A DNA stretch of 49,111 nt from Caldilineales bacterium (GTDB lineage: Bacteria > Chloroflexota > Anaerolineae > J102): NCBI GenBank assembly GCA_013360575.1, contig JABWBG010000001.1, forward strand, positions 1-49,111, given 5' to 3'. The notes under the pieces were generated by a model. It saw only the letters and a list, made by a program, of their open reading frames with translations. It did not search any database and was not told the origin of the DNA. Shown one piece after another: positions 12,608 through 46,501 of the stretch (the first letter of the stretch is position 1; each line of letters begins with the position of its first letter). Made by a program: the position numbers and the translations under genes.

Positions 12608-12631
12608 CGCCATTGCTAAAAAGAGGTCCCC

Positions 12632-26142: not shown

Positions 26143-26143
26143 C

Positions 26144-27736: not shown

Positions 27737-27780
27737 AGTACTCGGTTCGCAGTTGCCAGCAAGCAGCGCACTGACCCCTG

Positions 27781-27831
27781 ACCACTGAATACTGACCACT
27801 GAATACTGACCACTGAATACTGACCACTGAA
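27781..27831 (+). repeat. 14-nt tandem repeat (ACCACTGAATACTG x3.6) forming the trpE 5' UTR
   Basis: Copies at 27781, 27795 and 27809 plus a partial copy at 27823. It ends 1 nt before the trpE ATG (27833). No SD-like purine run is present. Confidence 0.9.
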
Positions 27832-29332: not shown

Positions 29333-29364
29333 TCCTCTGTCATCACTCAGCACTTTTAGCAATC

Positions 29365-29928
29365 ATGATTGCCGTTATCGACAACTACGACTCCTTCACG
29401 TACAATCTTGTGCAGTATCTGGGCGAATTGGGCGCCGATCTGCGCGTGTGGCGCAACGACGAGATCACGGTCGCGGCGCTGCGGGAACTGAACCCCACCC
29501 ACATCGTGATCTCGCCCGGCCCCGGCGCCCCCAGCGACGCCGGCGTTTCGAATGATGTGATCCGCGTTTTTTATGAAACGACGCCGATCCTGGGCGTTTG
29601 CCTGGGGCACCAGTGCCTGGGGCAGGTGTTCGGCGGGGTCGTGGCCCGGGCGCCTCGCCTGATGCACGGCAAAGTCAGTCCCGTCTATCACACCGGCGAC
29701 GCCCTGTTCAATGGCCTCCCCACACCCTTCCCGGCCACGCGCTACCACTCCCTCATCGTCGAAGAACCCCTGCCCGCTGCGTTGGTCATGACTGCCTTCA
29801 CCGCCGAGGGTGAAATCATGGCCATGAAACACCGGCGCCATCCCGCCTACGGCGTGCAATTCCATCCGGAAAGCATTCTCACCGAAGGCGGCAAACAGTT
29901 GCTGGCGAACTTTTTGCTGCTGAAGTAA
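29365..29928 (+). CDS. trpG: Anthranilate synthase component II (glutamine amidotransferase)
   Basis: MIAVIDNYDSFTYNLVQYL with catalytic GVCLGHQ. ATG 29365 lies within the longer ORF-track frame. Confidence 0.95.
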   Translation: MIAVIDNYDSFTYNLVQYLGELGADLRVWRNDEITVAALRELNPTHIVISPGPGAPSDAGVSNDVIRVFYETTPILGVCLGHQCLGQVFGGVVARAPRLMHGKVSPVYHTGDALFNGLPTPFPATRYHSLIVEEPLPAALVMTAFTAEGEIMAMKHRRHPAYGVQFHPESILTEGGKQLLANFLLLK

Positions 29929-29967
29929 CGAAGCAAGTTCACGCCCTCCCTCACCCATCATCCCACC

Positions 29968-30990
29968 ATGAACATCCAGGACGCTATTGCCCATGTCATT
30001 GCCGGGCAACACCTCGGCGAAGATGCAGCTTACGCCGTGATGATGGCCATCATGCGCGGCGAATGCACACCTGCGCAGATCGGCGGTTATCTGGTCGGAC
30101 TGGCGGCCAAAGGCGAAACCATCGCCGAGATCGCCGGCAGCGCCCGCGCCATGCGCGAACAGGCCATCGCCGTCCGTCACGCCTATGACGGCTGGCTGGT
30201 CGATACCTGCGGCACCGGCGGCGATCACTCCGGCACATTCAACATCTCCACGACCAGCGCCTTTGTCATCGCCGGATGCGGCGTGCCCGTCGCCAAGCAT
30301 GGCAATCGCTCGGTCACATCCAAAGCGGGCAGCGCCGATGTGCTCAAGGCTCTGGGCGTCAACCTCGATCTCACGCCCGAACAGGTGGGGGCATGCATCG
30401 ACGAGGTCGGCATAGGTTTCCTCTACGCCGTGCACCATCACCCGGCCATGAAACACGCCAGCGCCCCCCGCCGTGAACTCAGAGCCCGCACGATCTTCAA
30501 TATCCTCGGCCCCCTTACCAACCCTGCCAGCGCCACGCATCAGATCGTTGGCGTATTCGATCTGGCCCTGACCGAGCCGCTGGCGCGGGTGCTAGGGCGC
30601 CTGGGCACGCGCGCGGCTTTTGTGATGCACGGGGCCGACGGCCTGGACGAGTTCAGCACCACCGGCGTCAATCGCATCAGCCATCTGCGTGGGGGGACCG
30701 TGACCACGTTCGATCTAGACCCGCTCGACCTCGGCTTTCCTCGCGCCCATCTCTCTGACCTCCTTGGCGGCTCGCCGGAGGAGAATGCCGGCATGCTGCG
30801 CGCGATCCTCGCGGGGGAAGAACAAGGGCCCAAACGCCAGGTCGTCATCCTCAATGCCGCCGCCGCCCTTGCCGTGGAAGATGGCAATTGGGAAGCCGCC
30901 ATCGCCCGCACGCGCGCCAGCATCGATTCGGGCGCGGCCCTGGCGAAGCTGACGGCGCTGATCGAGAAATCGCAGGTATTTGCATCATGA
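29968..30990 (+). CDS. trpD: Anthranilate phosphoribosyltransferase
   Basis: 340 aa. CGTGGDHSGTFNIST and KHGNRSVTSKAGSADVL motifs. Confidence 0.95.
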   Translation: MNIQDAIAHVIAGQHLGEDAAYAVMMAIMRGECTPAQIGGYLVGLAAKGETIAEIAGSARAMREQAIAVRHAYDGWLVDTCGTGGDHSGTFNISTTSAFVIAGCGVPVAKHGNRSVTSKAGSADVLKALGVNLDLTPEQVGACIDEVGIGFLYAVHHHPAMKHASAPRRELRARTIFNILGPLTNPASATHQIVGVFDLALTEPLARVLGRLGTRAAFVMHGADGLDEFSTTGVNRISHLRGGTVTTFDLDPLDLGFPRAHLSDLLGGSPEENAGMLRAILAGEEQGPKRQVVILNAAAALAVEDGNWEAAIARTRASIDSGAALAKLTALIEKSQVFAS

Positions 30991-31820
30991 AACGCCAACA
31001 ACGCCTGCTCGCGCAGGGCAAACTCCTCGACGAAATCATGCGCTGGAAACGGCAGGAAGTGCCGCGGCAAAAGGCTGAACTGCCCGAAGCCAGCCTGCGC
31101 GCCCTGGTTGCCTTCACCCCGCCGCCGCTCGATTTCGCCGCCGCCCTCGCCGGCCCTGGCGTCAGCCTCATCGCCGAAGTCAAACGGGCTTCGCCGAGCA
31201 AAGGCTTGCTGTGCAAAGATTTCGATGCGGTCAAACTGGCCCTCACCTACGCCGCCGGCGGTGCTGCTGCCATCTCCTGTCTGACCGACGCCAAATTCTT
31301 TCAGGGCCAGCTCGAATTTATCACCGCCATCAAAGAGGCATTCCGGCAGCGCAAAATCACCCTGCCCGTGCTGCGCAAAGACTTTATTTTTGATCCCTAT
31401 CAAGTGTTGCAGGCCCGCGTAGCCGGGGCCGACGCCCTGTTGCTGATTATGGCTGTGTTAAGCCCTGCCGAGTACCGCGACCTGTTGGCCTACACGCACG
31501 AGCTGGGGATGACCGCCCTGGTCGAAGTGCATGACGAAGGCGAATTGGCGCGAGCGCTGAAGGAATCACCGCGTGTGGTGGGGGTCAACAACCGCGATCT
31601 GCGCACTTTTACCGTGGATCTGCACACGACCGCTCGCTTACGTTTGCAAATACCTGATGAGGTTCTCCTCGTCAGCGAAAGCGGCATCGGCAACGCTGAA
31701 GATGTGCGGGCGTTGCAGAAAATGGGCGCCGATGCCATGCTGGTAGGCGAAAGCCTGGTGAAGGTTGGGCAGAGGGAGCGAGAGCAAAAGTTGAAGGAAT
31801 TGGTAGAAGCGGGAAAATAG
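30987..31820 (+). CDS. trpC: Indole-3-glycerol-phosphate synthase
   Basis: ATGA overlap with the trpD stop. LIAEVKRASPSKG and VGVNNRDLRTF motifs. Confidence 0.95.
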   Translation: MKRQQRLLAQGKLLDEIMRWKRQEVPRQKAELPEASLRALVAFTPPPLDFAAALAGPGVSLIAEVKRASPSKGLLCKDFDAVKLALTYAAGGAAAISCLTDAKFFQGQLEFITAIKEAFRQRKITLPVLRKDFIFDPYQVLQARVAGADALLLIMAVLSPAEYRDLLAYTHELGMTALVEVHDEGELARALKESPRVVGVNNRDLRTFTVDLHTTARLRLQIPDEVLLVSESGIGNAEDVRALQKMGADAMLVGESLVKVGQREREQKLKELVEAGK

Positions 31821-31923
31821 AGGGGGCGATCTCCCCATTTGCCTTCAAATTCGTCATCGCTTGCCTGACCGTTCGGCGGGCAGGGCCGCGCAGGCCGCAG
31901 GCCGCGCTTGCGCGCCCAGCCGG

Positions 31924-32016
31924 CAGGCGCGAAAATGGGGGTGTGACTACGACAGGCCAACAGCAGCCAGCTTGCCGCCGCCGGCTGGTAACCGTGACGG
32001 GTTCTTTTTGTCACGC
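31924..32016 (+). repeat. Dispersed GC-rich repeat, copy 2
   Basis: Homologous to 16956-17050. Preceded by GCCTGAC-CGTTC-GGCGGGCAGGGCCGCG (31863-31891), which resembles the 6803-6826 attC flank. Confidence 0.7.
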
Positions 32017-32084: not shown

Positions 32085-32162
32085 CCCCCCCCACCCACCC
32101 ACCCAACCAACCACCCAACCAACCAACCACCCAACCAACTAACCAACTTCCCCCACACACAC
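32085..32162 (+). repeat. C-tract plus CCAACCAA-type tandem repeats forming the 5' UTR of the FAD oxidoreductase gene
   Basis: C8-A-CCC-A-CCC-A-CCC, then CAACCAACCACC units up to 2 nt before ATG 32164. No SD. Confidence 0.9.
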
Positions 32163-32163
32163 C

Positions 32164-33315
32164 ATGCCCACTGCTGACATCGTCATCATCGGCGGCGGGG
32201 TGATGGGCGTCAGCGCCGCGTATCACCTTGCCCGCAGACAGGCAGGCCGCGTCCTCCTGCTCGAAAAAGCCCCCTTCTTTGGCCAGGGCGCCACCGGAAC
32301 CTGCGCCGGCGGCATCCGCCACCAATTCTCCACCGCGGTCAACATCCACCTCAGCACCCTCAGCATCGCCATGCTCGAACGCTTCGCCGAGGAGATGGAG
32401 CAGGAGATCGATCTGCGCCTGGTCGGCTACCTCTTCTTGCTGAGCAATGAAGCCGACATCGCCGCGTTCGAGCGCAACGTGCAATTGCAGCGCCAGATGG
32501 GCATCGCCACCGAATGGCTGGACAGGGCCGAGATCGCCCGCCGCGCGCCCTTGCTCGACCTGGACGCCGAACCGGCCATCCTGGCCGGCACCAACTACCA
32601 CCGCGACGGTTTGGCCGACCCGCATTCCGTGGTGCAGGGCTATGTGAAACAGGCGCGACGGCTGGGCGCGCACTTGCTCACCGGGGCCGGCGCCCGGCGC
32701 ATCCTGGTCGCGGGAGACAAAGTGGTGGGCGTGGAGAGCGAGATCGGCCAGATCGCGACCGAAACCGTGTTGCTGGCCGCGGGGCCATGGTCGGGGCCGC
32801 TGGCCGCCACCGCCGGCGTGCCCCTGCCCGTCATTCCCCTGCGCCGCCAGATCGCCGTCACCCGGCCCCTCGGCATCCCCCGCCACATGCCCTTTTTGAT
32901 CGACTTCGCCCAAAGCCTCTATTTTCACTACGAAACCGGCGGCATCCTCACCGGCATGTCCAACCCGCACGAAACCCCCGGCGAAAAGCTGGATGTGGAT
33001 GCCGACTGGACCCTGACCCATTTCGAACACGCCATCGCCCGCATGCCCCTGCTGGAACAGGCGCAATTGCTGACGCAATGGGCCGGGCTGTACGAGGTCA
33101 CGCCCGACCACCAGCCGATCATCGGGCCGCTGCCGCTGCGAGGGCTGACCACCTGCACCGGGTTCAGCGGGCATGGCTTCATGCAAGGCCCGATCTGCGG
33201 GCAGTTGATGGCCGAAGAGATCCTCGACGGCGCCGCGCACACCGTCGATCTCAGCGAATTGCGCTACGACCGCTTTGCCGCCGGCGCCCTGGCCCCGGAG
33301 AAAAACGTGGTCTGA
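32164..33315 (+). CDS. FAD-dependent oxidoreductase (DAO family; sarcosine-oxidase-beta/glycine-oxidase-like)
   Basis: 383 aa with the Rossmann motif DIVIIGGGVMGVSAAYHLA and a DAO-family body. Confidence 0.85.
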   Translation: MPTADIVIIGGGVMGVSAAYHLARRQAGRVLLLEKAPFFGQGATGTCAGGIRHQFSTAVNIHLSTLSIAMLERFAEEMEQEIDLRLVGYLFLLSNEADIAAFERNVQLQRQMGIATEWLDRAEIARRAPLLDLDAEPAILAGTNYHRDGLADPHSVVQGYVKQARRLGAHLLTGAGARRILVAGDKVVGVESEIGQIATETVLLAAGPWSGPLAATAGVPLPVIPLRRQIAVTRPLGIPRHMPFLIDFAQSLYFHYETGGILTGMSNPHETPGEKLDVDADWTLTHFEHAIARMPLLEQAQLLTQWAGLYEVTPDHQPIIGPLPLRGLTTCTGFSGHGFMQGPICGQLMAEEILDGAAHTVDLSELRYDRFAAGALAPEKNVV

Positions 33316-33318
33316 GTC

Positions 33319-33431
33319 GTAGATATTGGATAGTAGATAGTGGATAGTGGATAGTGTAACGCGTCACAAGAGATAGATTTTAATCATTCACTACCCAATA
33401 TCGAATATCCAATACCCAATACCCAATAACC
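33319..33431 (+). repeat. Intergenic punctuation module: GATAGTG/GATATTG tandem arm, AT centre, CAATACC/CAATATC tandem arm
   Basis: The left arm 33319-33356 starts 3 nt after the stop. The right arm 33389-33431 is its approximate reverse complement. The centre contains TTTTAATCATT. The argG SD and ATG follow. Confidence 0.9.
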
Positions 33432-33451
33432 ATCATTCATTCGGAGTTTTC

Positions 33452-34726
33452 ATGTCTACCAAAAAACCCAAACCCACCGTCAACAAAGTCGTTCTGGCCT
33501 ATTCCGGCGGCCTCGATACCAGCGTGATCGTGCCCTGGCTGCGCAACAATTACGGCTGCGAAGTCATCTGCTTCTGCGCCAATCTCGGCCAGGAGGAGGA
33601 ACTGTCCGGCCTGGAGGCCAAGGCCATCGCTTCCGGCGCCAGCAAATGCTACATCGAAGACCTGCGGCTCGAATTCTTCAGCGATTTCATCCTCCCCACC
33701 ATCCAGGCCGGGGCAGTGTACGAACGCAAATACCTGCTGGGCACCTCCTTTGCCCGCCCACTGATCGCCAAACGCCTGGTCGAGATCGCCGAAATGGAGG
33801 GCGCGGACGCGGTAGCCCACGGCGCCACCGGCAAGGGCAATGATCAGGTGCGCTTCGAACTGACGATCATGGCCCTGAATCCCAAGCTGCGCATCATCGC
33901 CCCCTGGCGCGAATGGACGATCCGCGGGCGCAAGGACGCGCTCGACTACGCGGCCGAGCATAACGTGCCCGTGACCGCCACCGAGAAGTCGATCTACAGC
34001 CGCGACCGCAATCTCTTCCACATGAGCCACGAAGGCGGCCTGCTGGAAAACCCCTGGAACGAGCCGGAAGAGGTGATGTACACCCTCACCACCGCGCCGG
34101 AAGCCGCGCCCGACACCCCCGAATACCTGGAGATCGACTTCAAAGAGGGCGCGCCGGTGCGGGTCAATGGCGTGGCCTACGGGCTGCTGGGGATCATGGA
34201 AACGCTGAACGCCATCGGGGCCAAACACGGCATCGGCCGCATCGATCTGGTGGAAAACCGGCTGGTGGGGATGAAATCGCACGGGGTGTACGAGACGCCC
34301 GGCGGCACCCTGCTGCACGAGGCGCACGCCGCCCTGGAACAACTCTGCCTGGACAAAGACACGTTGCATTACAAACAGCAGGTCGGCCTGCGCTACGCCG
34401 AGCTGGTCTACAACGGCCAGTGGTTCACGCCCCTGCGCGAGGCGCTGGACGCGTTCGTGCAGAACACAGAAAAGAACCTCACCGGCTCGGTGCGCTTCAA
34501 GCTGTACAAAGGCAACGCCATCCTCGTGGGCCGCAAATCGCCCCACAGCCTCTATCGCGAAGATTATGTCACCTTCGATGAGGATGACGTGTACAACCAG
34601 CAGGACGCCGAAGGCTTCATCAAACTCTTTGGACTGCCGCTGAAGGTGCAGGCCATGCTCGAAATCGAGGGCAAAGGCGTCTCGCGCTACCGCTCCCCCG
34701 ACTTCAGCGCCTTCAAACGAGATTGA
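33452..34726 (+). CDS. argG: Argininosuccinate synthase
   Basis: 424 aa. [11 protein letters not shown] and [15 protein letters not shown] motifs. Confidence 0.95.
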
Positions 34727-34760
34727 CGCGACGCGCCGTCTCCTCTCCTCCACACTGCCC

Positions 34761-35984
34761 ATGAACCTTCCCTCCGGTTTCTCCTTCGGCGGCGTTGCCT
34801 GCGGCATCAAAAAGAACGGCGACCCCGACCTGGCCCTGGCCCTGAGCGAGACGCCCTGCACCGCGGCCGCGCTGTTCACGCAAAACCGTTTCGCCGCCGC
34901 GCCCGTGCAGTATGATCGCCAACTGCTCAGCCTGAATCCCGGCGGCGTACAAGCCGCGCTGATCAACAGCGGCAACGCCAACGCCGCCACCGGCGCCGCC
35001 GGGCTGGCCGCGACCCGGCGCAGCGCCGAGGCGGTCGAAACCATCTTCGGGCTGCCGCCCTGGTCGACTCTGGTCATGTCCACCGGCGTGATCGGCCAGC
35101 CCCTGCCGGTCGCACGCATCGAGACAGCGCTGCCCGGCCTGTTCCATAGCCTGCGGGCCGGCGTCGACGGGTTCCAGGCCGCGGCCCGCGCCATCATGAC
35201 CACCGACACCCACCCCAAGCTCGCCACGCAGCGCGTCGATCTGGGGGATGGCGTCATCACCCTGGCCGGGATCGCCAAAGGCGCGGGCATGATCCACCCA
35301 AACATGGCCACGATGCTGGCCCTGATCCTCACCGACGCCGCCCTGCCCCCCGACCTGTTGCACCTGGCCCTGCGCCAGGCCGCGGATCGCAGCTTCAACC
35401 GCATCAGCGTGGATGGCGACACCAGCACCAACGATACGCTGGCCCTGCTGGCCAACGGCGCCGCCGGATACACCATCACCGCCGCCGCCGCCCCCGCGTT
35501 CCAGGCCTTCACCGCCGGCCTGACCGCGGTCTGCACCGAACTGGCCCTGGCCATCGTGGCGGATGGCGAAGGCGCCACCAAACGGGCAACGATCCGCGTC
35601 TCTGGCCTGGCAGATGAGGCGCAGGCGCACCGCGTGGCCAACGCCATCGCCATCTCCCCCCTGGTCAAGACCGCCATCTACGGCGGCGACGCCAACTGGG
35701 GCCGCATCCTGGCCGCGGCAGGGAACAGCGGCGTCCCCTTCGCGGCGGAGCAGGCGCAGTTGTGGATTTCGGGCGGGGCCAGCGCCGCGGAGATGCTGCC
35801 CGCCCTGCAACTGGTCGCCGGCGGCGCGCCCCTGCCCTTTGCCGAGACAGAATCCACCCGGCGCTTTGCCCAGCCCGAACTGCTCATCGACCTGCGCCTG
35901 GGCGACGGCCCCGGCCAGGCGACGATGTGGACCTGCGACCTCAGCCACGACTACGTCACCATCAACGGCATGTACCGCACCTGA
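34761..35984 (+). CDS. argJ: Bifunctional glutamate N-acetyltransferase/amino-acid acetyltransferase
   Basis: 407 aa. GFSFGGVACGIKK, with autoprocessing site HPNMATML. Confidence 0.95.
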   Translation: MNLPSGFSFGGVACGIKKNGDPDLALALSETPCTAAALFTQNRFAAAPVQYDRQLLSLNPGGVQAALINSGNANAATGAAGLAATRRSAEAVETIFGLPPWSTLVMSTGVIGQPLPVARIETALPGLFHSLRAGVDGFQAAARAIMTTDTHPKLATQRVDLGDGVITLAGIAKGAGMIHPNMATMLALILTDAALPPDLLHLALRQAADRSFNRISVDGDTSTNDTLALLANGAAGYTITAAAAPAFQAFTAGLTAVCTELALAIVADGEGATKRATIRVSGLADEAQAHRVANAIAISPLVKTAIYGGDANWGRILAAAGNSGVPFAAEQAQLWISGGASAAEMLPALQLVAGGAPLPFAETESTRRFAQPELLIDLRLGDGPGQATMWTCDLSHDYVTINGMYRT

Positions 35985-36070
35985 AGCGAAAGCAGTTCGG
36001 CGGGGCAGCGGCCTGCTTGGTCTGCCCTGCGCCGGCGTGTATAATGCACGGCTAATCTTCTCATCCGAGG

Positions 36071-37069
36071 TTGCGAGTGAATCCCCAAGAAACACTGCGG
36101 TGCAGCGTCTGCATCACCGCCTATAACGAAGAGGCCAACATCGGCCCCCTGCTGGCCGCGATCACCGACCAACATCTGCACCAGGTCGAGATCAGCGAGA
36201 TCGTGGTCGTGGCCAGCGCCTGCACCGACCGCACCGTGCCGATCGTGCGGGAGTGGATGGCCAAGGATGCTCGCATCCAGTTGATCGAACAGCCGCGGCG
36301 AGAGGGCAAAACCGCCGCGGTCAACGCCTTTCTGCGCGTGGCGCGGGAGGAGGTCTGCGTGCTGGAAAGCGGCGACACGCTGCCGCACGAGTCCGCCATC
36401 GAGCATCTGGTGCGCATGTTTCACGACCCCGCGGTGGGTATGACCGGCGCGCACAAGGTGCCGGTGAACACGCCCGACCATCTCGCCGGCGTCTTCACCT
36501 ATCTGCGCTTGCAGATGGAGCATGAACTCTGCCTGGAGATCCCCCGGCTGGGCGAATTGATCGCGTTCCGCCGCGTGTTCGACCAGATCCCGGCGGATGT
36601 GGCCATGGACGAAGCGTTTGTGGAGGCGATCATCGTGGAGCGGGGCATGCAGGTGCGGTATGCGCCCGACGCCGTCGTCTACAACACCGGCCCCAGCACG
36701 ATCAGCGATTTCGTGCGCCAGCGCCGGCGCAACCATGCCGGCCATCTCTATCTGAAGCAGAAATATGGCTACAAAGTCAGCAGCCTGCGCAAACGCAAGG
36801 TGGCGCGGGTGGCGTTTCGCCAGGTCTGGCAGGCGGTGTGGGGCGCGGTGCGGTTGTTCTGGGTGGTAGGGCTGCTGGCGGTGCTCGAAGGCTGGGCCCG
36901 TCTGCTGGGCTGGTATGATTTCGCCCTGCGCGGGGAACGGCATGTCGTCTGGGATATGGCCTGGTCGCAGAAGGCGGATGTGGGCAGCGAGCGCGCCCGG
37001 CGGGCGCAAGCAGGCGGCGAAGGCCCGGCCAAACCCGCGCCAGTGGCCGCGAACAAGCCGCAGGGTTGA
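36071..37069 (+). CDS. Family 2 glycosyltransferase
   Basis: CSVCITAYNEEANIGPLL and a later acidic motif. The start is uncertain (TTG 36071 or GTG 36077). Confidence 0.8.
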   Translation: MRVNPQETLRCSVCITAYNEEANIGPLLAAITDQHLHQVEISEIVVVASACTDRTVPIVREWMAKDARIQLIEQPRREGKTAAVNAFLRVAREEVCVLESGDTLPHESAIEHLVRMFHDPAVGMTGAHKVPVNTPDHLAGVFTYLRLQMEHELCLEIPRLGELIAFRRVFDQIPADVAMDEAFVEAIIVERGMQVRYAPDAVVYNTGPSTISDFVRQRRRNHAGHLYLKQKYGYKVSSLRKRKVARVAFRQVWQAVWGAVRLFWVVGLLAVLEGWARLLGWYDFALRGERHVVWDMAWSQKADVGSERARRAQAGGEGPAKPAPVAANKPQG

Positions 37070-37070
37070 G

Positions 37071-38033
37071 ATGCGCTCTCCCCGCGCTGCCCTTTACCTG
37101 CGTCTGGCGGTCAGTCTGGGGCTGATCGCGCTGGTCATCTACCTCTTCCGCGATCGCTGGCGCGAGGTGGCGACGAATCTGCTGCGCGCCCACCCCTGGC
37201 TGCTGGCCCTGGGCGTGCTGCTATTTCTGATCGCCATGGTGATCAACGCCCTGAAGTGGTGGGTGCTGCTACGGGCGCAGGAGATCGCCATCCCCTTCCG
37301 GGCGGTGCTGAACTACACCTTTGTCGGCTTTTTCTTCAATAATCTATTGCCGGCCAACATCGGCGGGGATGTGATGCGCGGGGTGGGCGTGGCGTATCAC
37401 ACCGAGCGGGCCGCGCAGGCTGCGGCCTCGGTGGTGCTCGACCGCATCATCGGCCTCTCGGCCTACATGAGTGTGGCCGCGCTGGCTTCGGGGATCACGG
37501 TTTTCGTCACCGGGCGCAGCGACCTGCAAGTGCTGGTGCTGGTGGCTGTGGTAGCCACTGCGGCCCTGGCCGTGGTGGCGGCAGTTTTGCTCAGCCGGCG
37601 GGTGCGGGCGCTTGTGGGGCGGGTCATCGCGGCCACGCCGTTGCGCCCCCTGCACGCGATCTGGGAATCTCTATCCACCGCGTTCGAGGCCTACCGCTAC
37701 CGCTATCGCTCTTTATTGCTGGCCTATGGCATCGGGCTGGGGGGCATCCTCTCCACCTCGTGGGTCAATTTCGTCCTGTCCGAGAGCCTGGGCGGGGGGA
37801 TTTCATTGCTGCACATTTTGCTGTTCACCCCTCTGACCGCGCTGGTGCTGATCATCCCCATTTCCATCGGCGGCCTGGGCCTGAACCAGGTGGCCTATCC
37901 CTTTTTCTACGGACTGGTGGGCACGCCCGCCCCGCACGCGCTGGCCCTGAGTCTGTTCATTCAGGCCACACAGGTGCTGTGCAGCCTGCCCGGCGGCCTG
38001 CTCTGGCTGCGCTGGCGGCGAGAAAAACGTTAG
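37071..38033 (+). CDS. Flippase-like/UPF0104 (lysyl-PG-synthase TM-region family) membrane protein
   Basis: ATG 37071 lies 1 nt after the upstream stop. Polytopic, with the motif FFNNLLPANIGGDVMRG. Confidence 0.75.
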   Translation: MRSPRAALYLRLAVSLGLIALVIYLFRDRWREVATNLLRAHPWLLALGVLLFLIAMVINALKWWVLLRAQEIAIPFRAVLNYTFVGFFFNNLLPANIGGDVMRGVGVAYHTERAAQAAASVVLDRIIGLSAYMSVAALASGITVFVTGRSDLQVLVLVAVVATAALAVVAAVLLSRRVRALVGRVIAATPLRPLHAIWESLSTAFEAYRYRYRSLLLAYGIGLGGILSTSWVNFVLSESLGGGISLLHILLFTPLTALVLIIPISIGGLGLNQVAYPFFYGLVGTPAPHALALSLFIQATQVLCSLPGGLLWLRWRREKR

Positions 38034-38036
38034 GAT

Positions 38037-38181
38037 GGGTATTGGATATTGGATATTGGATATTGTTCGATCGTTAATGATTAGCGATTGATGATTAATC
38101 ATTAATACCCAATATCAAATATCAAATATCTAATGCCTAATACCTAATACCCAATATCAAATATCAAATATCAAATACCCC
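38037..38181 (+). repeat. Intergenic punctuation module: TATTGGA tandem arm, TTAATGATTA...TAATCATTAA centre, AATATCA/CCTAATA tandem arm
   Basis: The left arm 38037-38065 starts 3 nt after the stop. The AT hairpin arms are 38074-38083 and 38096-38105. The right arm 38108-38181 runs to the base before ATG 38182. Confidence 0.9.
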
Positions 38182-38829
38182 ATGCCTCTCCCCGCCATCA
38201 CCGCAGAACAAGCGCAGGCCCTGTACGGGCAGGATGACGCCGCCCATGCCTTCGACCATGTGCTGCGGGTGACGCGGCTGGCCGTGCATATCGCCGCAGC
38301 CGAGGGCGCGGATGTGCACGTGGTGCGCACCGCCGGCCTGTTGCACGATTGCGCCCGCAACGAGCCAGATCACCATCTGGCCGGGGCCAGGCAGGCGCGG
38401 GCCTTGCTGGCTGCCGAACCGCAGTCCTTTGTGGACGCGGTGGCGCACTGCATCGAGGCCCACCGTTTCAGCGTGGCGCCCCATCCCCAAACCCTGGAGG
38501 CGCGCTGCCTGTGCGACGCCGACCGCCTGGATGCCATCGGCGCCATTGGCGTGGCCAGGGCCTTCGCCTTTGCCGGGCGTCAGCGCAGCCACCTGTGGAG
38601 CGCGCCTCTGGCCACGCTGCGGCCAGAGATCGGCGCGGATGTGGCTGCCTATCGCCGGCAGTTCGGCGGCGCGCCGGCCTACACGCCCGGCCACGAGTTC
38701 ATCTGCAAACTGGAAGGGTTGGCTGCTGAGTTGTACACCGCCACGGCCCAGGCCATAGCTGCAGAGCGGGCACGCTTCATGGCCGAGTTCTTCGCCCGTC
38801 TGGATGCCGAAGCGCTGGGCGAGGTATGA
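38182..38829 (+). CDS. HD-domain phosphohydrolase
   Basis: 215 aa. H..HVLRV, LLHDCAR and DADRLDAIGAIG motifs. Confidence 0.85.
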   Translation: MPLPAITAEQAQALYGQDDAAHAFDHVLRVTRLAVHIAAAEGADVHVVRTAGLLHDCARNEPDHHLAGARQARALLAAEPQSFVDAVAHCIEAHRFSVAPHPQTLEARCLCDADRLDAIGAIGVARAFAFAGRQRSHLWSAPLATLRPEIGADVAAYRRQFGGAPAYTPGHEFICKLEGLAAELYTATAQAIAAERARFMAEFFARLDAEALGEV

Positions 38830-38830
38830 G

Positions 38831-39096
38831 TTTTTTTAACGCAAAGGAACGCAAAGATTTTTAACGCAAAGACGCAGAGATTCGCAGAGGTTCGCAGAGG
38901 TTTTTGTATGATGATTAATTATTAATAGAAATTTTTTATTGAATATTTTACTACTTTATTTCTATTCTGCGAAAAATCTTATAAATTATTAAAAAAACCT
39001 CTGCGCCCCTCTGCGAACCTCTGCGTCTTTGCGTTAAAAAACTCTGCGTTCCTCCGCGCCTTTGCGTTAAAAAACTCTGCATCTTTGCGTTAAAAA
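38831..39096. repeat. Large imperfect palindrome between convergent genes (tandem TTTTTAACGCAAAG / GCAGAGG units, AT-rich centre)
   Basis: The left arm 38831-38905 and right arm 38992-39096 are approximate reverse complements sharing AAAAACCTCTGCG, TCTTTGCGTTAAAAA and TTTGCGTTAAAAA. An 86-nt AT-rich centre contains GATTAATTATTAAT. Confidence 0.9.
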
Positions 39097-39110
39097 TCCC
39101 CGCGTCCCTC

Positions 39111-39641
39111 TCACCCCGCGCCAGGGTCGAGGAAATCGCCGGCGACCCAGCCTTCGCCGATGCTGCCATCCTCCCGCTCAAAACGGATGCCCCACCAGGT
39201 GTAGGTATCGGCGCGCTGCGGGCCGTCATACACCTCGACGATGGCGCCCAAAGGCAGGGTAATGACCGGATCGAAATTGGTGCCGGGGCCGCTGCGCACA
39301 CGCAGGCCCGATTCAGCGTTGACCGTAGCCTCGATGCCGACGCGCAGCACATCGGCTACCGCCGGCGTGGGCGTGGGCGGCTCTGGCGTGGGCGTGGGCG
39401 GCTGCGGTGTGGGCGTGGGCGGTTCCGGCGTGGGCGTGGCAGTGGGAGGCAAGGCCGCGACCAGAGTCGCGGTGGGCGGAACCGGCGTGGGCGAGGCCAG
39501 GACGCCCGGTTCCAGCATGTTGGCGAAGGTATAGAACAGGCCACCGGTGATGAGGATGGCTGCAAAGGGGATGAGCAGGGCGACCCAGGGCGAACGTGGC
39601 CGCTGCTGTCGCCGCCGCCCCTGATAACGTCGTGGTGTCAT
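39111..39641 (-). CDS. Membrane-anchored SH3b-domain protein with PT-repeat linker
   Basis: Start taken at MTPRRYQ.. (39641). It has a TM helix, an (E/Q)PPTPTP x3 linker, and a C-terminal SH3b-like SGLRVRSGPGTNFDPVITLPLGAIVEV. Confidence 0.75.
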   Translation of the reverse strand: MTPRRYQGRRRQQRPRSPWVALLIPFAAILITGGLFYTFANMLEPGVLASPTPVPPTATLVAALPPTATPTPEPPTPTPQPPTPTPEPPTPTPAVADVLRVGIEATVNAESGLRVRSGPGTNFDPVITLPLGAIVEVYDGPQRADTYTWWGIRFEREDGSIGEGWVAGDFLDPGAG

Positions 39642-39824
39642 GCGTGCTCCGACTGGGTGTGTAGGATGGGGCAAGTATACCATGTTCCCGCGGCCGCGGG
39701 GCAATGCCGGCGCAGGCGTTTGCAGCAGGAGGATATCCCAAGACAACGCTGCGCCTGCCGGCAAAATAACCCAAATTTATCCCAAGGTTTTCCCAAATCC
39801 ATCCGCCGCGGCCATCTCCGGCGC

Positions 39825-40310
39825 TCAGGACTCATTGGCGGCGGTCAGGGCCAGCACATATTTGTCGGGCACTTGCACGGCCACCACCTGCCCCCGCACC
39901 GTCACCTCCTCCCCGGCCAGCAGGACGACATCCACCACAACTTTGCGGCCTTTGATCTCGGCGATGCGCCCGCGCAGCACCAGTTCCGGCCCCAGGGGCG
40001 TGGGTTTGAGGTAATCGACATGCAGGGATGCGGTGAGATAGCGCAGGGCCGGCTCCGTGTCCATCTCGCGGCCTTCGGCGCGGTAGGCCGCGGCCGCGGC
40101 TGAGCCGGTGCTATGACAATCGACCAGCGAAGCCAGCAGGCCGCCGTAGACATAGCCGGGGATGGCCTTGTGCTGCGGGCTGGGTGTGAAACGTGTCACC
40201 GTCTCTTCCCCATCCCAAAAGGTCTTGATCTGATAGCCCTGGTCGTTGAGACGTCCGCAGCCGTAGCAATGCGCCAGGTGATCCGGGTAGTAATCTTGGA
40301 AAGCTTTCAT
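39825..40310 (-). CDS. PaaI-family hotdog-fold thioesterase
   Basis: 161 aa. CYGCG zinc-like N-terminus, GYVYGGLLASLVD and a hotdog core. Confidence 0.8.
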   Translation of the reverse strand: MKAFQDYYPDHLAHCYGCGRLNDQGYQIKTFWDGEETVTRFTPSPQHKAIPGYVYGGLLASLVDCHSTGSAAAAAYRAEGREMDTEPALRYLTASLHVDYLKPTPLGPELVLRGRIAEIKGRKVVVDVVLLAGEEVTVRGQVVAVQVPDKYVLALTAANES

Positions 40311-40503
40311 GGGGTGGGGGGGGGGTGGTTGGTTGGTTAGTTGGTTAGTTGGTTAGTTGGTTGGTTGGTTGGTTGGTTGGTTGGTAGATTGGTAGATTGG
40401 TAAATTGGTAGATTGGTAAATTGGTAGATTGGTCGTGAATTAGGAGAAATCATCACGCACCACGCACCACGCCCCACGCACCACGCATCACGCATCACGC
40501 ATC
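40311..40503. repeat. Three consecutive tandem arrays between GDPD stop and thioesterase start
   Basis: The plus strand reads: G-tract, (A/G)GTTGGTT 8-mers, GGTA(G/A)ATT 8-mers x6, an AT-rich centre, then CACGCA(C/T) 7-mers x8. In gene sense (minus strand) this is GT-rich after the stop and CA-rich plus a C-tract before the ATG. Confidence 0.9.
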
Positions 40504-40508
40504 ACGCT

Positions 40509-41387
40509 CTATCTTTGTAAAATGGCGAGTAAACGATCGGGATAGTCGGTGATGATGCCGTCGACGCCGAGGTCGATCAGCCGCTGCATGTGATCAGGAT
40601 CGTTGATCGTCCAGGCTTCTACCTGCATGTTGCGGCCATGCGTGGCGCGCACGAAGCCGCGCGTCAAGATCTCGATGCCGCTACGGCTCTGCGGCACCTG
40701 CACGGCGTGGGCCTGCGGACGGTAGAGCCAGCCCAATCCCACTTTGCTGAGCAGCACCAGGGGCAGCAGCTCATCCTCGGCCCCCGAGGTGGCGATCTCG
40801 GGGCAGGTCTGGCGGAAGGATTGCATGCGTTCGTCGTGGAAAGAGGCCACCAGCACCTCGGTTTGCTTGCCGAACTGCCGGATCAGGGCGCAGAAAGGCT
40901 CAGCCATATCCCGCTCACTCTTCTTGATCTCGATGTTCATGGGCATGCCGGGGAAGGCGGTGAACACCTCGTGCAGCGTGGGCACGGTGATGCCCTGCCC
41001 GCGGAAAGGAAAGGTCTGGCCATTGTCAGGCGACCAGTCGTAGCCCGCGTCCAGGTTTTTCAGCGCGGCCAGGGTCATGGCCTCGATCGGGCCGCTGCCA
41101 TCGGTGGTGCGGTCCACAGTCTCATCGTGCATCAACACCAGCACGCCATCCGCGGTGATGTGCAGATCCATCTCCAGCACATCCACGCCCAGCGCTGCAG
41201 CCCGCTCGAAGGCGAAAAGGGTGTCGCCTGGCCACAGGCCATCTCCGCCCTGATGGGCAATGACCAGGGGCCGCTGCGCGAAGCGGGCATAGTAGGGATG
41301 ATCGGCGATGGGGCGAGCAAACAGGGCGGTGACGCCCAAAATGGCGATCAGCAAGAGCAGCAGGGTGAGGAGGATACGTCGGCGCAT
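40509..41387 (-). CDS. Glycerophosphodiester phosphodiesterase with N-terminal signal/anchor
   Basis: Start at MRRRILLTLLLLL (41387). VIAHQGGDG and HDETVDRTT motifs. The longer ORF-track frame upstream is not coding. Confidence 0.9.
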   Translation of the reverse strand: MRRRILLTLLLLLIAILGVTALFARPIADHPYYARFAQRPLVIAHQGGDGLWPGDTLFAFERAAALGVDVLEMDLHITADGVLVLMHDETVDRTTDGSGPIEAMTLAALKNLDAGYDWSPDNGQTFPFRGQGITVPTLHEVFTAFPGMPMNIEIKKSERDMAEPFCALIRQFGKQTEVLVASFHDERMQSFRQTCPEIATSGAEDELLPLVLLSKVGLGWLYRPQAHAVQVPQSRSGIEILTRGFVRATHGRNMQVEAWTINDPDHMQRLIDLGVDGIITDYPDRLLAILQR

Positions 41388-41493
41388 GGCAAGGGGTGGG
41401 GGGGGGCGGGGTGGGGCAGGAACGGTGCGCGCTATTGTAGCAGGCGGGGGCGGGAAGTTGACAAACGCCGGGAAGGATAGGGACAATGGCGGC

Positions 41494-42477
41494 ATGACCG
41501 CCATTTCGCTGATCTGCACGGTGTACAACGAGGGCGCAGCGATCCACCGTCTGCTGGAAAGCATCGCCGGCCAGACCCTGCTGCCCGATGAGGTGCTATT
41601 CGTGGATGGCGGGTCCAGCGATGACACCGTGGCGCAGATCGAGGCATACGCGGATCGGCTGCCGCTGCGCGTGCTGGTGGCGCCGGGCGCGAATATCTCG
41701 CGGGGGCGCAACCTCGCCATTGCCGCGGCCGCGGGGGAAATCATCGCCGTGACCGATGCCGGCGTGCGGCTGGCGCCGGTTTGGCTGGAGGAGATCACCT
41801 GGCCCCTGCGCCAGAACGCGGAACTGCCGGCGGTGGCCGGTTGGTTCGAGGTGGATGCGGCCACGCCCTTCGAGGCGGCGATGGGCGCCACCGTGCTGCC
41901 CACTGTCAGCGAGATCGATCCGGCGCGCTTTCTGCCCTCCAGCCGCTCGCTGGCGGTGCGCAAATCAGCCTGGGCCGCGGCGGGGGGCTATCCCGAATGG
42001 CTGGATTATTGCGAAGATCTGGTGTTCGACTTTGCTTTACGCCAGCAGGGCGGTCTGGGCTGGGCGCCAGAGGCGGTGGCGCATTTTCGCCCGCGCGGGT
42101 CGTTGCCGGCCTTTTTCCGGCAGTATTACCGCTACAGCCGCGGGGATGGCAAGGCGGATCTGTGGCGCAAGCGACATGCCCTGCGTTACGCCGCCTATCT
42201 GTGGATTGGGCCGGGGTTGCTGTGGCTGGCGATGGCGGCGCATCCGCTTTTTCTGCTCCTGCTGGCGGCAGGGTTCGCCCTCTATTGCCGCACGCCCTAT
42301 CGCCGGCTGCTGGCGGCATGGGCGCGGCCCCTGACCTCGGGCCGGCGGCTGACGCGGGCCGAGAAGCTGGCCACCCTGCTGCTGGTACCCTTGATCCGCG
42401 TGGTGGGGGACGTGGCCAAGATGGTGGGGTATCCGGCAGGCGTGTGGTGGCGGTACAAACCAATGATTAATGATTAA
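41494..42477 (+). CDS. Family 2 glycosyltransferase with C-terminal TM segments
   Basis: ISLICTVYNEGAAI..VDGGSSDDT. TTGACA (41458-41463), 18 nt, GACAAT (41482-41487), then ATG 6 nt later suggests a leaderless start. The last codons MIND* lie in the AT palindrome. Confidence 0.85.
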   Translation: MTAISLICTVYNEGAAIHRLLESIAGQTLLPDEVLFVDGGSSDDTVAQIEAYADRLPLRVLVAPGANISRGRNLAIAAAAGEIIAVTDAGVRLAPVWLEEITWPLRQNAELPAVAGWFEVDAATPFEAAMGATVLPTVSEIDPARFLPSSRSLAVRKSAWAAAGGYPEWLDYCEDLVFDFALRQQGGLGWAPEAVAHFRPRGSLPAFFRQYYRYSRGDGKADLWRKRHALRYAAYLWIGPGLLWLAMAAHPLFLLLLAAGFALYCRTPYRRLLAAWARPLTSGRRLTRAEKLATLLLVPLIRVVGDVAKMVGYPAGVWWRYKPMIND

Positions 42478-42501
42478 TAATCAATCATTAATCATTAATC
42501 A
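42464..42501. repeat. Perfect 15-bp AT hairpin overlapping the stop codon
   Basis: TGATTAATGATTAAT (42464-42478) / ATTAATCATTAATCA (42487-42501), with an 8-nt loop. The stop TAA is at 42475-42477, inside the left arm. Confidence 0.95.
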
Positions 42502-42554
42502 TCATCCTTTAACTACTGTTTCGGTGATGCGGCGAACGACTGTTGCCGCCTCTG

Positions 42555-42604: not shown

Positions 42605-44338
42605 ATGCCCACTCCGACCATTCGCTGGGAAGTGCCGCCGCCGGCACCGCCCGCCATCCATGCCCGCCTCAGCCACCTCCACCCCATCATCGTGCAGGTG
42701 CTCTACAATCGCGGGCTGGCCGATGTCGAAGATGTGGCCGAATTCTTCGGCCAGCGCCGGCGCCCCGATGATCCCTTCCGCATCAAAGGTGTGAGTCAGG
42801 CTGTCACCCGCCTGCGTCAGGCCATCCGCCGTCAGGAGCCGATCGCGGTCTACGGCGATTTTGACGCGGACGGCGTCACGGCCACCGCCCTGATGGTGCA
42901 AACCCTCGCCGCCTTCGGGGCCGACGTCATGCCCTACATCCCCCACCGCGTGGATGAAGGCTACGGCCTCAACAACGAAGCCCTGAAATGGCTGCACGAT
43001 CAGGGCGTGCGCGTGGTGCTCACCGTCGATTGCGGCATCCGCGCGGTAGCCGAAGCGACCTACGCCGCCAACCTGGGCCTGGAGATGATCATTTCCGACC
43101 ATCACTCCATCGGCCCCACCCTGCCCCCGGCCCTGGCCGTGATCAACCCCCGGCAAGCAGACTGCTCCTATCATTTCGACGCCTTCGCCGGCGTGGGTGT
43201 GGCCTTCAAGCTGGCCCAGGCCCTGCTGCGGGCCGAGGCCGCCGCCCCGATCGCCGCCGCGCCGGTGCAACTGGTCGAGGAAGACCTGCTCGATCTGGCG
43301 GCGGTGGGCACGGTGGCCGATATCATGCCCCTGCGCGGGGAGAACCGGCTGCTGGTGCAGCGGGGACTGATCGAGTTGCAACGGGGCCGGCGGCCCGGCC
43401 TGCGCGCCCTGGCCAAACAGGCCCGCACCCCCCTGGAAAAGATCGACGCCGCCGCCATTGGCTTCCGCCTGGGGCCGCGGCTGAATGCAGCCGGACGCCT
43501 GCACAGCGCCGTCCTGGCCTACGACCTGCTCATGGCCGCGGACGACCAGACAGCCGAGCCGCTGGCCCATCAATTGGACGCCCTCAACCAGGAACGCCAA
43601 CGCCTGACGCAAGAGGCGGTGAAATGGGCCGAGACCGAGTTGGGCGACAACCCGGCCGAGAATGTGCTCCTCGTGGCCCGCGCCGGCCTGAACCCCGGCA
43701 TCGTCGGCCTGATCGCCAGCCGCCTGAAGGAGCAGTACTATCGCCCCGCCCTCGTCGTCGATCTGGGCGAAGAGGAGGCGCGCGGCTCGGCCCGCAGCAT
43801 TCCCGCCTTCCACATCACCGAGGCCCTGGATCAGTGCGCGGACTTGCTGACGCGCTACGGCGGCCACGCTGCGGCCGCGGGTTTCACCCTGCACCGCCGC
43901 CACCTGCCCGCCCTGCGCCAGCGCCTCAACGCCATCGCCGCCGAACGCCTGGCCCCCGACACGCGGGTGCAACACCTACCGGTTGACGCGGTCGTACACT
44001 TCAAAGATCTTGATTTCGCGCTGCTGGCCAGGCTGCGCGAGCTGGAACCGACCGGAGCCGAAAACCCTCCCCCCACCTTCGCCGCCGCCGACCTGCTGGT
44101 GCAGGGCTTCCGCCGCGTGGGCGGCGACGCCAGCCACCTCAAGATCAAACTCTCCGACGGCCAGATCACCTACGAGGGCATCGGCTTTGGCCTGGGCGAA
44201 CGCGCCCTCGACCTGCCCATGCGCGTCGATGTGGCCTTCGAATTGAACGAAAATGTGTGGAATACCCACCGATCCCTGGAATTGATGATCAAAGATATTC
44301 AGCCCGCGGGCAGAGGAATCCCCCATGAATCTGTTTAG
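42605..44338 (+). CDS. recJ: Single-stranded-DNA-specific exonuclease RecJ
   Basis: 577 aa. DHH-family motifs VYGDFDADGVT, DCG and ISDHHS, plus the DHHA1 region. Confidence 0.95.
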   Translation: MPTPTIRWEVPPPAPPAIHARLSHLHPIIVQVLYNRGLADVEDVAEFFGQRRRPDDPFRIKGVSQAVTRLRQAIRRQEPIAVYGDFDADGVTATALMVQTLAAFGADVMPYIPHRVDEGYGLNNEALKWLHDQGVRVVLTVDCGIRAVAEATYAANLGLEMIISDHHSIGPTLPPALAVINPRQADCSYHFDAFAGVGVAFKLAQALLRAEAAAPIAAAPVQLVEEDLLDLAAVGTVADIMPLRGENRLLVQRGLIELQRGRRPGLRALAKQARTPLEKIDAAAIGFRLGPRLNAAGRLHSAVLAYDLLMAADDQTAEPLAHQLDALNQERQRLTQEAVKWAETELGDNPAENVLLVARAGLNPGIVGLIASRLKEQYYRPALVVDLGEEEARGSARSIPAFHITEALDQCADLLTRYGGHAAAAGFTLHRRHLPALRQRLNAIAAERLAPDTRVQHLPVDAVVHFKDLDFALLARLRELEPTGAENPPPTFAAADLLVQGFRRVGGDASHLKIKLSDGQITYEGIGFGLGERALDLPMRVDVAFELNENVWNTHRSLELMIKDIQPAGRGIPHESV

Positions 44339-46472: not shown

Positions 46473-46501
46473 TTCAATCATCGATCAACAAAACCGGAAC
46501 C

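Follow-up and report, generated by a model that had tools for sequence, protein, structure and literature searches.

Heptamer repeat arrays and palindromic modules at gene junctions of a Caldilineales bacterium as probable slippage satellites of the STRR type

INTRODUCTION

What arrays of the short tandemly repeated repetitive (STRR) type do has been an open question since about 1990. The present study deals with arrays of this kind in a 49,111-nt stretch of DNA from a Caldilineales bacterium (Chloroflexota; contig JABWBG010000001.1, positions 1–49,111, hereafter the window), where tandem units, predominantly of 7 nt, are concentrated between genes and often face a complementary array, giving modules that are predicted to fold into hairpins. 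In filamentous cyanobacteria, STRR heptamer arrays form intergenic hairpins, between hupS and hupL and upstream of hoxW, for which roles in transcript stability, translational coupling and termination have been proposed but are unproven (PMC2670836). In the tRNA-Leu intron of Nostoc, degenerate heptamers whose copy number varies pair into the P6b hairpin (PMC3488679). TAACTGA repeats abut Shine–Dalgarno-free starts in Beggiatoaceae, Cyanobacteria and Bacteroidetes and show 7-nt indels between strains (MacGregor 2015, PMC4679880). In a survey of representative species, no other tabulated bacterium had as many satellites as Chloroflexus aurantiacus, 22 of which derive from (GATAGRA)n (Subirana and Messeguer 2019, PMC6749651). 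In Haemophilus influenzae, the (ATCTTTC)n array of hmw is transcribed and forms a long hairpin in the 5′-untranslated region (5′-UTR), with RNase III processing and an effect on expression (PMC12721329). An earlier reading of the window, made from its letters alone (hereafter the sequence-only reading), knew of no described element class with this design; heptamer STRR hairpins (PMC2670836, PMC3488679) and start-proximal heptamers (PMC4679880) had, however, already been described.

The likeness to STRR sequences is close. Tandem units of ~7 nt occur at many non-coding loci, intergenic and intercistronic, complementary arrays pair into a hairpin, copy number changes by whole units between strains, and arrays sit in peripheral stem-loops of structured RNAs. 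Some units we take to be the cyanobacterial ones: (CAATCCC)15 in a relative (L093 17402–17508; comparison loci are cited by their L numbers) is presumably the STRR1 unit CCCCART, and (AACAGTC)n (window 1332–1380 and L090 6384–6414) the STRR3 unit CAACAGT, while TTGGTCG (L010 4636–4663) would be near the STRR2 unit TTGGTCA and GGGGATC (L008 12255–12311) near the Nostoc unit GGGGAYT. On the other hand, the host is a Chloroflexota of 65% GC and not a heterocystous cyanobacterium, for which the term was coined; the window and its relatives hold many unrelated unit families within 20 kb, together with 4-, 8- and 16-nt units; and window modules have AT-rich (TTAATCA)n arrays nested at their centres. 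We met no description for STRR sequences of the consistent G-arm-first polarity seen in the pairs of the window.

Other systems share part of the design. Like the TAACTGA repeats, the arrays are heptamer direct repeats oriented to the downstream gene that end a few nucleotides before Shine–Dalgarno-poor starts, differ by 7-nt indels between strains and have a lineage-specific abundance. There, however, one unit dominates and no folding is predicted, whereas many units and common inverted pairs are found here; TAACTGA itself is not present, its nearest counterparts being ACTGAAT/ACTGACC (27769–27831) and TACTGAA (L011). The hmw array is likewise a heptamer repeat of variable copy number that is transcribed in a 5′-UTR and pairs with a G-rich arm in a long hairpin. 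That array is, however, the pyrimidine-rich left arm at one contingency locus of a pathogen, and its RNase III cleavage and expression effect are demonstrated, whereas the stems of the window are predicted only. Mycobacterial interspersed repetitive units of the variable-number tandem repeat type lie in operon-internal spacers, abut stop and start codons and vary in copy number; they differ in having direct units of 40–100 bp, small ORFs (open reading frames) that preserve translational coupling, and no hairpin pairs. Small dispersed repeats are reportedly the subject of work by Elhai in 2008. Such repeats, like miniature inverted-repeat transposable elements (MITEs) and the repetitive extragenic palindrome doublets known as REPINs (PMC3116915), are palindromic, intergenic, nested, and present or absent at orthologous sites, but the window modules have no demonstrable family sequence, termini or target duplication. 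The (GATAGRA)n satellites of Chloroflexus come from the same phylum, are numerous and intergenic, and have a unit close to GATAGTG/GATAGTA of the window; Chloroflexus, however, is of another taxonomic class, and the census that listed them says nothing of how they are built, of their polarity or of where they lie relative to stops and starts (PMC6749651).

RESULTS AND DISCUSSION

Arrays populate non-coding DNA and change by whole units

Arrays were located with Tandem Repeats Finder (TRF), and gene boundaries were those of gene calls made independently on contigs of identical sequence, together with Pfam. The window contained 19 arrays, compared with 0.7 in block-shuffled sequence; 15 lay in its 8.5 kb of non-coding DNA and four in its 40.6 kb of coding DNA. 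When 14 loci from the clade were included (~264 kb), array density was 46 bases/kb in non-coding and 5.8 in coding DNA, an approximately 8-fold difference. Nearly all coding arrays had periods that are multiples of 3 (6–18), whereas the non-coding periods were 7, 8, 14, 16 and 4.

Six contigs at 99.7–99.98% identity to the window contained three distinct indels in four sightings, all inside arrays, and no other indels. A 16-nt unit (32103–32118) was deleted in strain contig L001 and a 7-nt unit (38111–38117) in L001 and L005, and one base was lost at 27250 in L002, within a (CCATCGT)6 array. The gain and loss of whole units, as in the deletions of 7 and 16 nt, is the signature of slipped-strand mispairing. 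Unit variants also form internal gradients within arrays. In the leader of the 4HBT gene, CCAATCTA units give way to CCAA, then to CTAACCAA and a C-run, a gradation that, judged from the sequence, is typical of satellites evolving locally. Short-read contigs terminate within arrays (27804, 32110, 38123 and 40346), and an assembly artefact was rejected on finding identical arrays in more than ten independent assemblies. A CRISPR array was also rejected: the units are contiguous and of 4–16 nt, not repeats of 24–48 nt with unique spacers of similar length.

On balance, we think it probable that the arrays are STRR-type slippage satellites in the non-coding DNA of Caldilineales-like Chloroflexota, which are transcribed and whose C/A-rich tail serves as an initiation region. 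Units of 7 nt, and also of 4, 8, 9, 14 and 16 nt, would populate the non-coding DNA of the lineage and, as the strain deletions show, gain and lose whole copies by slipped-strand mispairing. A partner arm would arise and stay matched through intrastrand template switching across the hairpin, and new arrays would arise in the loops of older pairs. Units that are not multiples of 3 could not survive in coding DNA and would accumulate between a stop codon and the next start, where the module often makes up the entire spacer. A paired module is predicted to fold into a long intercistronic or leader hairpin followed by a single-stranded C/A-rich tail before the start, and from its composition and folding this G-poor tail would be the usual Shine–Dalgarno-free translation-initiation region. 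Any further effects, such as on the stability of the mRNA, on its processing by RNase III or on expression tuned by copy number, are speculative and would be secondary.

Modules at the gene junctions

All five spacers listed in the sequence-only reading held arrays by TRF, and the gene calls and Pfam bore out that these begin 1–6 nt after a stop and end 0–20 nt before a start; the description as stop-to-start spacers held except for 38831–39096, which is flanked by two convergent stops. TRF gave a period of 7 (or 14) at 33322, 33395, 38036, 38111, 40454, 42462, 46409, 27236, 27769 and 1332, and periods of 4, 8 and 16 were also present in the window.

On the plus strand, a single C/A-rich arm precedes the DAO oxidoreductase gene (32164–33315, stop 33313–33315). 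This arm (32091–32147; TRF period 4/16, CCAA/CCAACCACCCAACCAA, the unit being also given as (CCAA/CCAACCAC)n) contains no G. Between the DAO gene and argG (33452–34726, plus strand, ATG at 33452), the 5′ arm (GATAGTG/GATATTG)5 (33319–33356; TRF, inverted repeat I4) contains no C and begins 3 nt past the DAO stop; a centre or loop (33357–33391) that contains TTTAATCATTCA separates it from the 3′ arm (CCAATAY)n (33392–33432; TRF CCAATAT/TACCCAA), which has one G and 14 C and is followed by GGAG (33443–33446) and the argG ATG. A similar module lies between the LPG_synthase_TM gene (37071–38033) and the HD gene (38182–38829, ATG at 38182), both on the plus strand. Its 5′ arm (TGGATAT)4.3 (38036–38065; TRF), again without C, begins 2 nt past the LPG_synthase stop, an inner pair (TAATGAT)n|(ATCATTA) is nested at 38066–38103 (inverted repeat I9), and the 3′ arm (AATATCA/AATACCY)n (38104–38179; TRF AATATCA/AATACC x9.6) has its last ~40 nt unpaired in the predicted fold.

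The largest module (38832–39109, no strand assigned) is the one between convergent stops, those of HD and of the SH3 gene (39111–39641, minus strand). It comprises TRF arrays at 38833–38902 and 38996–39080 (AACGCAAAG/CGCAGAGGTT and their complements), with an outer unit TTTTTAACGCAAAG, an inner unit CGCAGAGGTT, a complementary arm at 38990–39109 and a loop of 81 nt and ~15% GC (38909–38989). In one strain (L132), a T>C change at window position 38827 turned the HD stop codon TGA into CGA; the called product then runs on into the repeat module and has 247 residues instead of 215. The SH3 gene itself holds an in-frame 21-nt repeat of 3.7 copies (39362–39439), a coding array whose period is a multiple of 3.

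On the minus strand, the spacer between the GDPD gene (40509–41389) and the 4HBT gene (39825–40310, ATG 40310–40308) contains a G/T-rich arm and a C/A-rich arm that are not complementary, as the sequence-only reading had implied. The former, (GTGCGTG/GTGATGC)7.7 (40454–40507; TRF CACGCAC x7.7), begins 1 nt past the GDPD stop. The latter (40311–40433) runs as (CCAATCTA)n, (CCAA)n, (CTAACCAA)n and a C-run to the ATG, with no G and 33 C; TRF reported TGGT x19 and TTGGTAGA x9.6 at 40326–40433.

The same design was found at seven more sites in the window. One array lies over the trpA stop (26938–26955), and three belong to the leader of the trpEGDC operon and its upstream region (27236–27283, 27495–27533 and 27769–27831; see below). 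On the plus strand, the pair (ATGATTA)2|(AATCATT)3 (42462–42505) overlaps the stop (42475–42477) of a GT2 gene that ends at 42477, and lies upstream of a promoter-like site at 42556 and of recJ (42605–44338). In another plus-strand pair (46409–46481), (TAATGAT)4 extends over the stop of rlmN, which ends at 46425, and is followed by (TTAATCA)3 ahead of fmt, which begins with GTG at 46502. The seventh is (AACAGTC)7 (1332–1380, plus strand; TRF). Read by eye, this array and ~35 further nt are bracketed by a ~37-nt direct repeat (~1289–1326 and ~1410–1445) that is the 3′ end of a gene including its TGA; the segment 1289–1445 looks like a ~121-nt partial tandem duplication and may be an example of how a spacer that holds an array is created.

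The sequence-only reading had described an AT-rich centre that often carries TTAATSATTAA. The motif is real, with seven occurrences compared with none expected, but the palindrome is the junction of a nested pair of heptamer arrays, since (TAATGAT)n followed by (ATCATTA)n yields it at every unit boundary. This pair makes up the entire module at 42462 and 46409 and is nested in the centre of other pairs at 38066–38103 and 38908–38925; the enclosing pairs are probably older than the arrays nested in them. In L090, an aminotransferase gene opens with (AACAGTC)4.4 (6381–6414), which begins at the ATG and is decoded in triplets, three units being 21 nt; heptamer arrays can thus extend into coding sequences at their 5′ ends.

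The start-proximal arm is poor in G and predicted to be open

In the window and its relatives, C exceeded G in 12 of the 13 arrays that lie within 30 nt upstream of a start (p = 0.0017), and about nine of these showed no Shine–Dalgarno sequence when read by eye. Within the window, the array ends 1 nt from the start of trpE, 2 nt from HD, 15 nt from 4HBT (a C-run), 16 nt from DAO and 20 nt from fmt, with a Shine–Dalgarno sequence in none of the five. In gene sense, the sequence-only reading had placed a G/T-rich arm after the stop and a C/A-rich arm before the start. Because a complementary pair of G-arm and C-arm is its own reverse complement, such polarity is informative only for single arms and for 40311–40508. 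By our own count, all seven single or non-complementary start-proximal arms were C-rich in gene sense (the DAO, trpE and 4HBT leaders, L087 7948, L088 20324, L093 17402 and L007 17728). In an objective hairpin scan, the 5′ arm had more G than C in every heptamer-array pair and the purine arm always came first in the CRCARAG family of 8–10-mers, and the sole clear C-first pair (L008 11230) lay between genes that are convergent by a heuristic based on GC at third codon positions (GC3). C-rich leaders with no Shine–Dalgarno sequence also precede array-free genes (trpD, argJ, GDPD and the gene at 9902).

Folding predictions agreed with these compositions. With the native arm, 0.57–0.86 of the region from −15 to +12 was predicted to be unpaired (0.86 at the 4HBT start), compared with 0.23–0.60 when the arm was reverse-complemented, in all six window cases. 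This flip in silico also lowered the energy of the structure in each of the six, from −3 to −21 down to −21 to −43 kcal/mol, and the start was buried, since the coding strand is rich in C and a leader rich in G pairs with it. For modules folded as complete read-through transcripts, the hairpin was predicted to close upstream and to leave 0.42–0.76 of the start unpaired. Thus the C/A arm behaves in prediction as the unstructured leader that the sequence-only reading had suggested, being rich in C over G, mostly devoid of a Shine–Dalgarno sequence and followed by a more open start. Selection for an open start region would explain why the start-proximal arm is poor in G.

Arrays and a module in T-box leaders

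A T-box (27380–27709, 101.9 bits by cmscan with Rfam) stands ahead of trpEGDC (27833–31820), with a near-consensus promoter, TTGACA-18-TATAGT, at 27331 and a terminator at 27701–27737. In the cmscan alignment, the (TTAATCA)-type array (27495–27533, plus strand; TRF) was a 30-nt insertion in a T-box stem-loop, and the array (CTGACCACTGAATA)4 (27769–27831, plus strand; TRF) spans the gap between the terminator and the trpE ATG at 27833. The T-box has a second lineage-specific insertion, a hairpin (27625–27646) based on CCATCGT, the unit of the (CCATCGT)6 array upstream of the promoter (27236–27283, plus strand; TRF). In L090, the space between a T-box (90.5 bits, E = 1.8e-20, slightly below the gathering score) and the pheS ATG holds a whole pair, (CGTATTG)4...(ACGCAAY)4. 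These two leaders show that modules are transcribed within the mRNA and are not separate transcription units, and the same probably holds for the others.

Inverted arms, orthologous junctions and a possible RNase III device

The inverted-repeat scan found reverse-complementary arms in three cases (33319/33392, 38036/38104 and 38832/39109), the number given in the sequence-only reading. The arms of the largest module (I1, 38840–38908/38990–39058) are 69 nt long and 88% complementary, and those at 33313–33352/33386–33425 are 40 nt long and 75% complementary. Folds were compared with mononucleotide shuffles for 15 modules and with dinucleotide shuffles for four. The module 38832–39109 had a minimum free energy of −115 kcal/mol (z = −14, mononucleotide), and the pair at 38037 gave z = −4.7 and that at 33316 a weaker z = −2.3 (both dinucleotide). 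Values were −6.9 for 42462–42505, a perfect 16-bp stem, −4.1 for 46409–46481 and about −2 (−2.1) for the sense strand of 40311–40508. Most pairs had z-scores of −4 to −17, with close values on the two strands. Sense-specific selection on RNA was rejected: sense and antisense folds and G-U counts of 15 modules gave no consistent sense advantage. Hairpins equal on both strands fit inverted repeats that are maintained at the DNA level, with which a role in RNA is compatible. G-quadruplexes were also rejected, most G-containing arms (GATAGTG, TGGATAT, TAATGAT and GTGATGC) having no G-runs.

The LPG_synthase/HD junction could be followed across relatives. In five of them (L087, L089, L090, L092 and L094) the two genes overlap by 8 nt (ATGccTGA) and in L093 the spacer is 12 nt, whereas the window has a 148-nt TATTGGA module, and L088 and L091 have modules of 147 and 113 nt whose unit, CACGAAT, is unrelated to TATTGGA. 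Since five relatives overlap there, the spacer consists of nothing but the module, which was added where translation of the two genes had been coupled. Contigs of ~0.2–1.7 Mb exist for relatives such as L007, L090 and L093. Among the relatives, array density ranged from none (L089, L094, L012 and L018) to ~5 per 13–20 kb (L008, L010 and L093), and the loci of Acidobacteriota, Nitrospira and Dehalococcoidia that we compared held no such arrays. On this evidence the modules are young and dispensable, recent additions rather than conserved regulators. The architecture recurs with other units: L008 has TAG-(GGGGATC)3, a true A-tract/stem/T-tract hairpin and (GATCCCC)8; L009 has TAA-(GAATGAC)n-loop-(TCGTCAT)n-ATG, 89 nt in total; L011 has TAG-(AGTAATC)n...(TACTGAA)n-AAAGGAG-ATG; and further examples occur in L010, L088, L090, L092 and L093.

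By analogy with hmw, the modules might instead be an adaptive post-transcriptional device, in which RNase III would cut the double-stranded RNA hairpin, uncouple the cistrons and free an mRNA with a C/A leader, with copy number as the tuner. Although this mechanism has been demonstrated for a heptamer repeat hairpin (PMC12721329), and predicted stems of 16–45 bp, the transcription of modules in leaders and copy numbers that differ between strains would suit it, the LPG_synthase/HD junction cuts both ways: the module takes the place of translational coupling there, but most relatives have none at the orthologous position. The wide differences in array density among close genomes, hairpin stabilities with no sense-strand G-U bias and arms that are not complementary (40311–40508) also argue against such a device, which we consider unlikely.

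Points against slippage satellites, and signs of dispersal

Several points weigh against the arrays being slippage satellites whose start-proximal arm is shaped by initiation. The G- or purine-first bias is also seen at the convergent spacer 38832–39109, where no start codon follows; selection on the start region may thus not be the whole reason for the polarity, as it does not explain G-first order at convergent spacers. Transcription through most modules is inferred, and so are hairpin formation in the cell and translation that starts from the C/A tail; the sample is ~30 arrays, and the gene maps of L007–L012 come from the GC3 heuristic. Heptamers found here turn up again in other phyla, and neutral slippage by itself would not lead one to expect this. 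Finally, some segments hint at dispersal and not at purely local slippage: 27503–27533 and 46409–46439 are 97% complementary over 31 non-periodic bases (I17), and 33396–33425 and 38036–38065 are 93% complementary.

Fixed G- or purine-first palindromic arrays might, more broadly, be an operon punctuation shared by filamentous bacteria from four or more phyla (Chloroflexota, Cyanobacteria, Beggiatoaceae and Bacteroidetes), with a common heptamer vocabulary (CCCCAAT, CAACAGT, xxACTGA and GGGGATY) and a conserved trans-acting factor or a tiny loop-targeting mobile element behind it. In that case arrays would replace translational coupling and Shine–Dalgarno initiation at the junctions they had invaded, and copy number would tune expression; this we hold to be rather improbable.

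The modules could also have begun as miniature mobile palindromes, resembling MITEs, small dispersed repeats or REPINs, that inserted at junctions or in hairpin loops and whose arms were then remodelled by slippage. The presence or absence of a module at one junction among relatives, the nesting of arrays and the insertion into a T-box loop would all fit, as would the near-identical 31-nt segments at two loci and an arm sequence common to the 33319 and 38037 modules (33369–33428, 60 nt, is 72% identical to 38083–38142). Against this, neither target-site duplications nor common termini were found at the window modules, within these 49 kb of genome, and the window contains no transposase or gene like those of REP-associated tyrosine transposases; moreover, almost every module has its own unit, and the changes between strains are unit-sized. 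We hold a mobile origin to be improbable for the modules of the window, although a dispersed element elsewhere carries (TAATGAT)n...(ATCATTA)n in its terminal inverted repeats in ~20 contexts.

That element came from a metagenome scan with the non-periodic 22-mer AATCATTAATTTTTAATCATTA, which returned 35 loci, none from the organism of the window. It belongs to an unrelated MITE-like family, ~210 nt long, in another organism (55–61% GC, JAEEGL01 contigs), with ~20 copies in differing contexts (L098, L099, L101, L103, L104, L106, L111–L113, L115–L117, L120, L121, L123–L125 and L129). The terminal inverted repeats read aaatttcagtttatcgc...(TAATGAT)n and (ATCATTA)n...gcgataaactgaaattt, and the core includes a gcggctttagccgc hairpin.

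Terminator, promoter and protein-site readings

The sequence-only reading had proposed a composite of hairpin terminator, AT-centre promoter and C/A leader. Hairpins do stand directly after stops, the centres are AT-rich within a 65% GC genome, and the leader part is supported as described above; the other two parts are not supported. No U-tract followed the module stems, the terminator scan found no terminator in any module and terminators only at the T-box, and in two stems (window 38832 and L088 9854) a T-run on the 5′ side and an A-run on the 3′ side give a polarity opposite to that of a terminator. By eye, canonical hairpins with a T-run were seen in other spacers (8551–8597 and ~12580–12610). 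A scan for sense-strand promoters, confined to the sigma-70 type (−35/−10 with 16–18 nt spacing), found none in any AT centre, where only weak antisense matches (9/12) occurred; matches of 10–11/12 were at 27331 and 42556, outside the modules. The supposed promoter sequence TTAATCA also lies inside the T-box stem-loop and over stop codons. Moreover, arrays and, in L090, a whole module lie downstream of riboswitch terminators. Because a terminator or promoter at these leader positions would defeat the riboswitch and abolish its control, the modules are not terminator–promoter units, and we find the composite highly improbable.

That the arrays are multivalent sites for a heptamer-reading protein (a cold-shock-domain or S1-like RNA binder, or a DNA-binding protein) is hardly credible, since units that differ from module to module fit no single sequence-specific reader, for all that the 7-nt period is dominant, that such sites were proposed for the TAACTGA repeats (PMC4679880) and that trpE and L011 have xxACTGA units similar to TAACTGA.

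Genomic context of the window

Many public assemblies carry the species of the window at 99.7–100% identity, and the organism appears in 128 index blocks, SRR30756391 and SRR21689238 among them. Among the matches listed, the closest relatives of its ArgJ and HD proteins were from metagenome-assembled genomes (MAGs) of Caldilineales, Promineifilum and Ardenticatenaceae. In a scan of genome collections, ArgJ was at most 54% identical to proteins of Caldilineaceae, Promineifilum and Ardenticatenaceae MAGs among those matches, and the HD protein was 74% identical to that of one Caldilineales MAG. From 7 kb onward the window has a GC content of ~65%, and its gene map also includes trpBA (24937–26953), argJ (34761–35984) and a GT2 gene (36077–37069) upstream of the LPG_synthase_TM gene.

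The first 7000 nt are a low-GC run (45–54%) of small toxin–antitoxin-like ORFs, labelled HigBA-, HicAB-, BrnTA- and MazEF-like from translations read by eye. They are separated by repeated GC-rich elements of ~90–100 nt with GCCTAAC...GTTAGGC ends, of which 300–401 and 3863–3964 match at 92% and 2481–2568 and 4920–5007 at 98%. The region resembles the cassette array of a chromosomal integron with its attC sites; an integrase is absent from the window. A GC-rich 98-nt repeat occurs downstream of two unrelated genes (16920–17017 and 31888–31985, 73% identity), the second copy just after trpC; Rfam gave no match for it, and it may be a small RNA of an unknown kind or an element like the repetitive extragenic palindromes. 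From trpA to the T-box promoter extends a 280-nt AT-rich island (26954–27235), by eye far under 65% GC, which contains neither an ORF nor an array.

Implications

The LPG_synthase/HD junction offers a clean case of before and after, with an 8-nt overlap in five relatives set against modules of 113–148 nt, made of two unrelated units, in three genomes. T-box leaders are natural markers of array transcription, and the arrays, which break short-read assemblies of this organism, would make good strain markers in the manner of variable-number tandem repeats. The rule that the start-adjacent arm is G-poor, and that pairs have a strand-symmetric G-first polarity, can be tested. What may be new is that the design occurs in Caldilineales-like Chloroflexota, with diverse units, AT-rich arrays nested inside and this polarity rule. 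Taken together, our results extend an STRR-like phenomenon to high-GC filamentous Chloroflexota, which are common in metagenomes.

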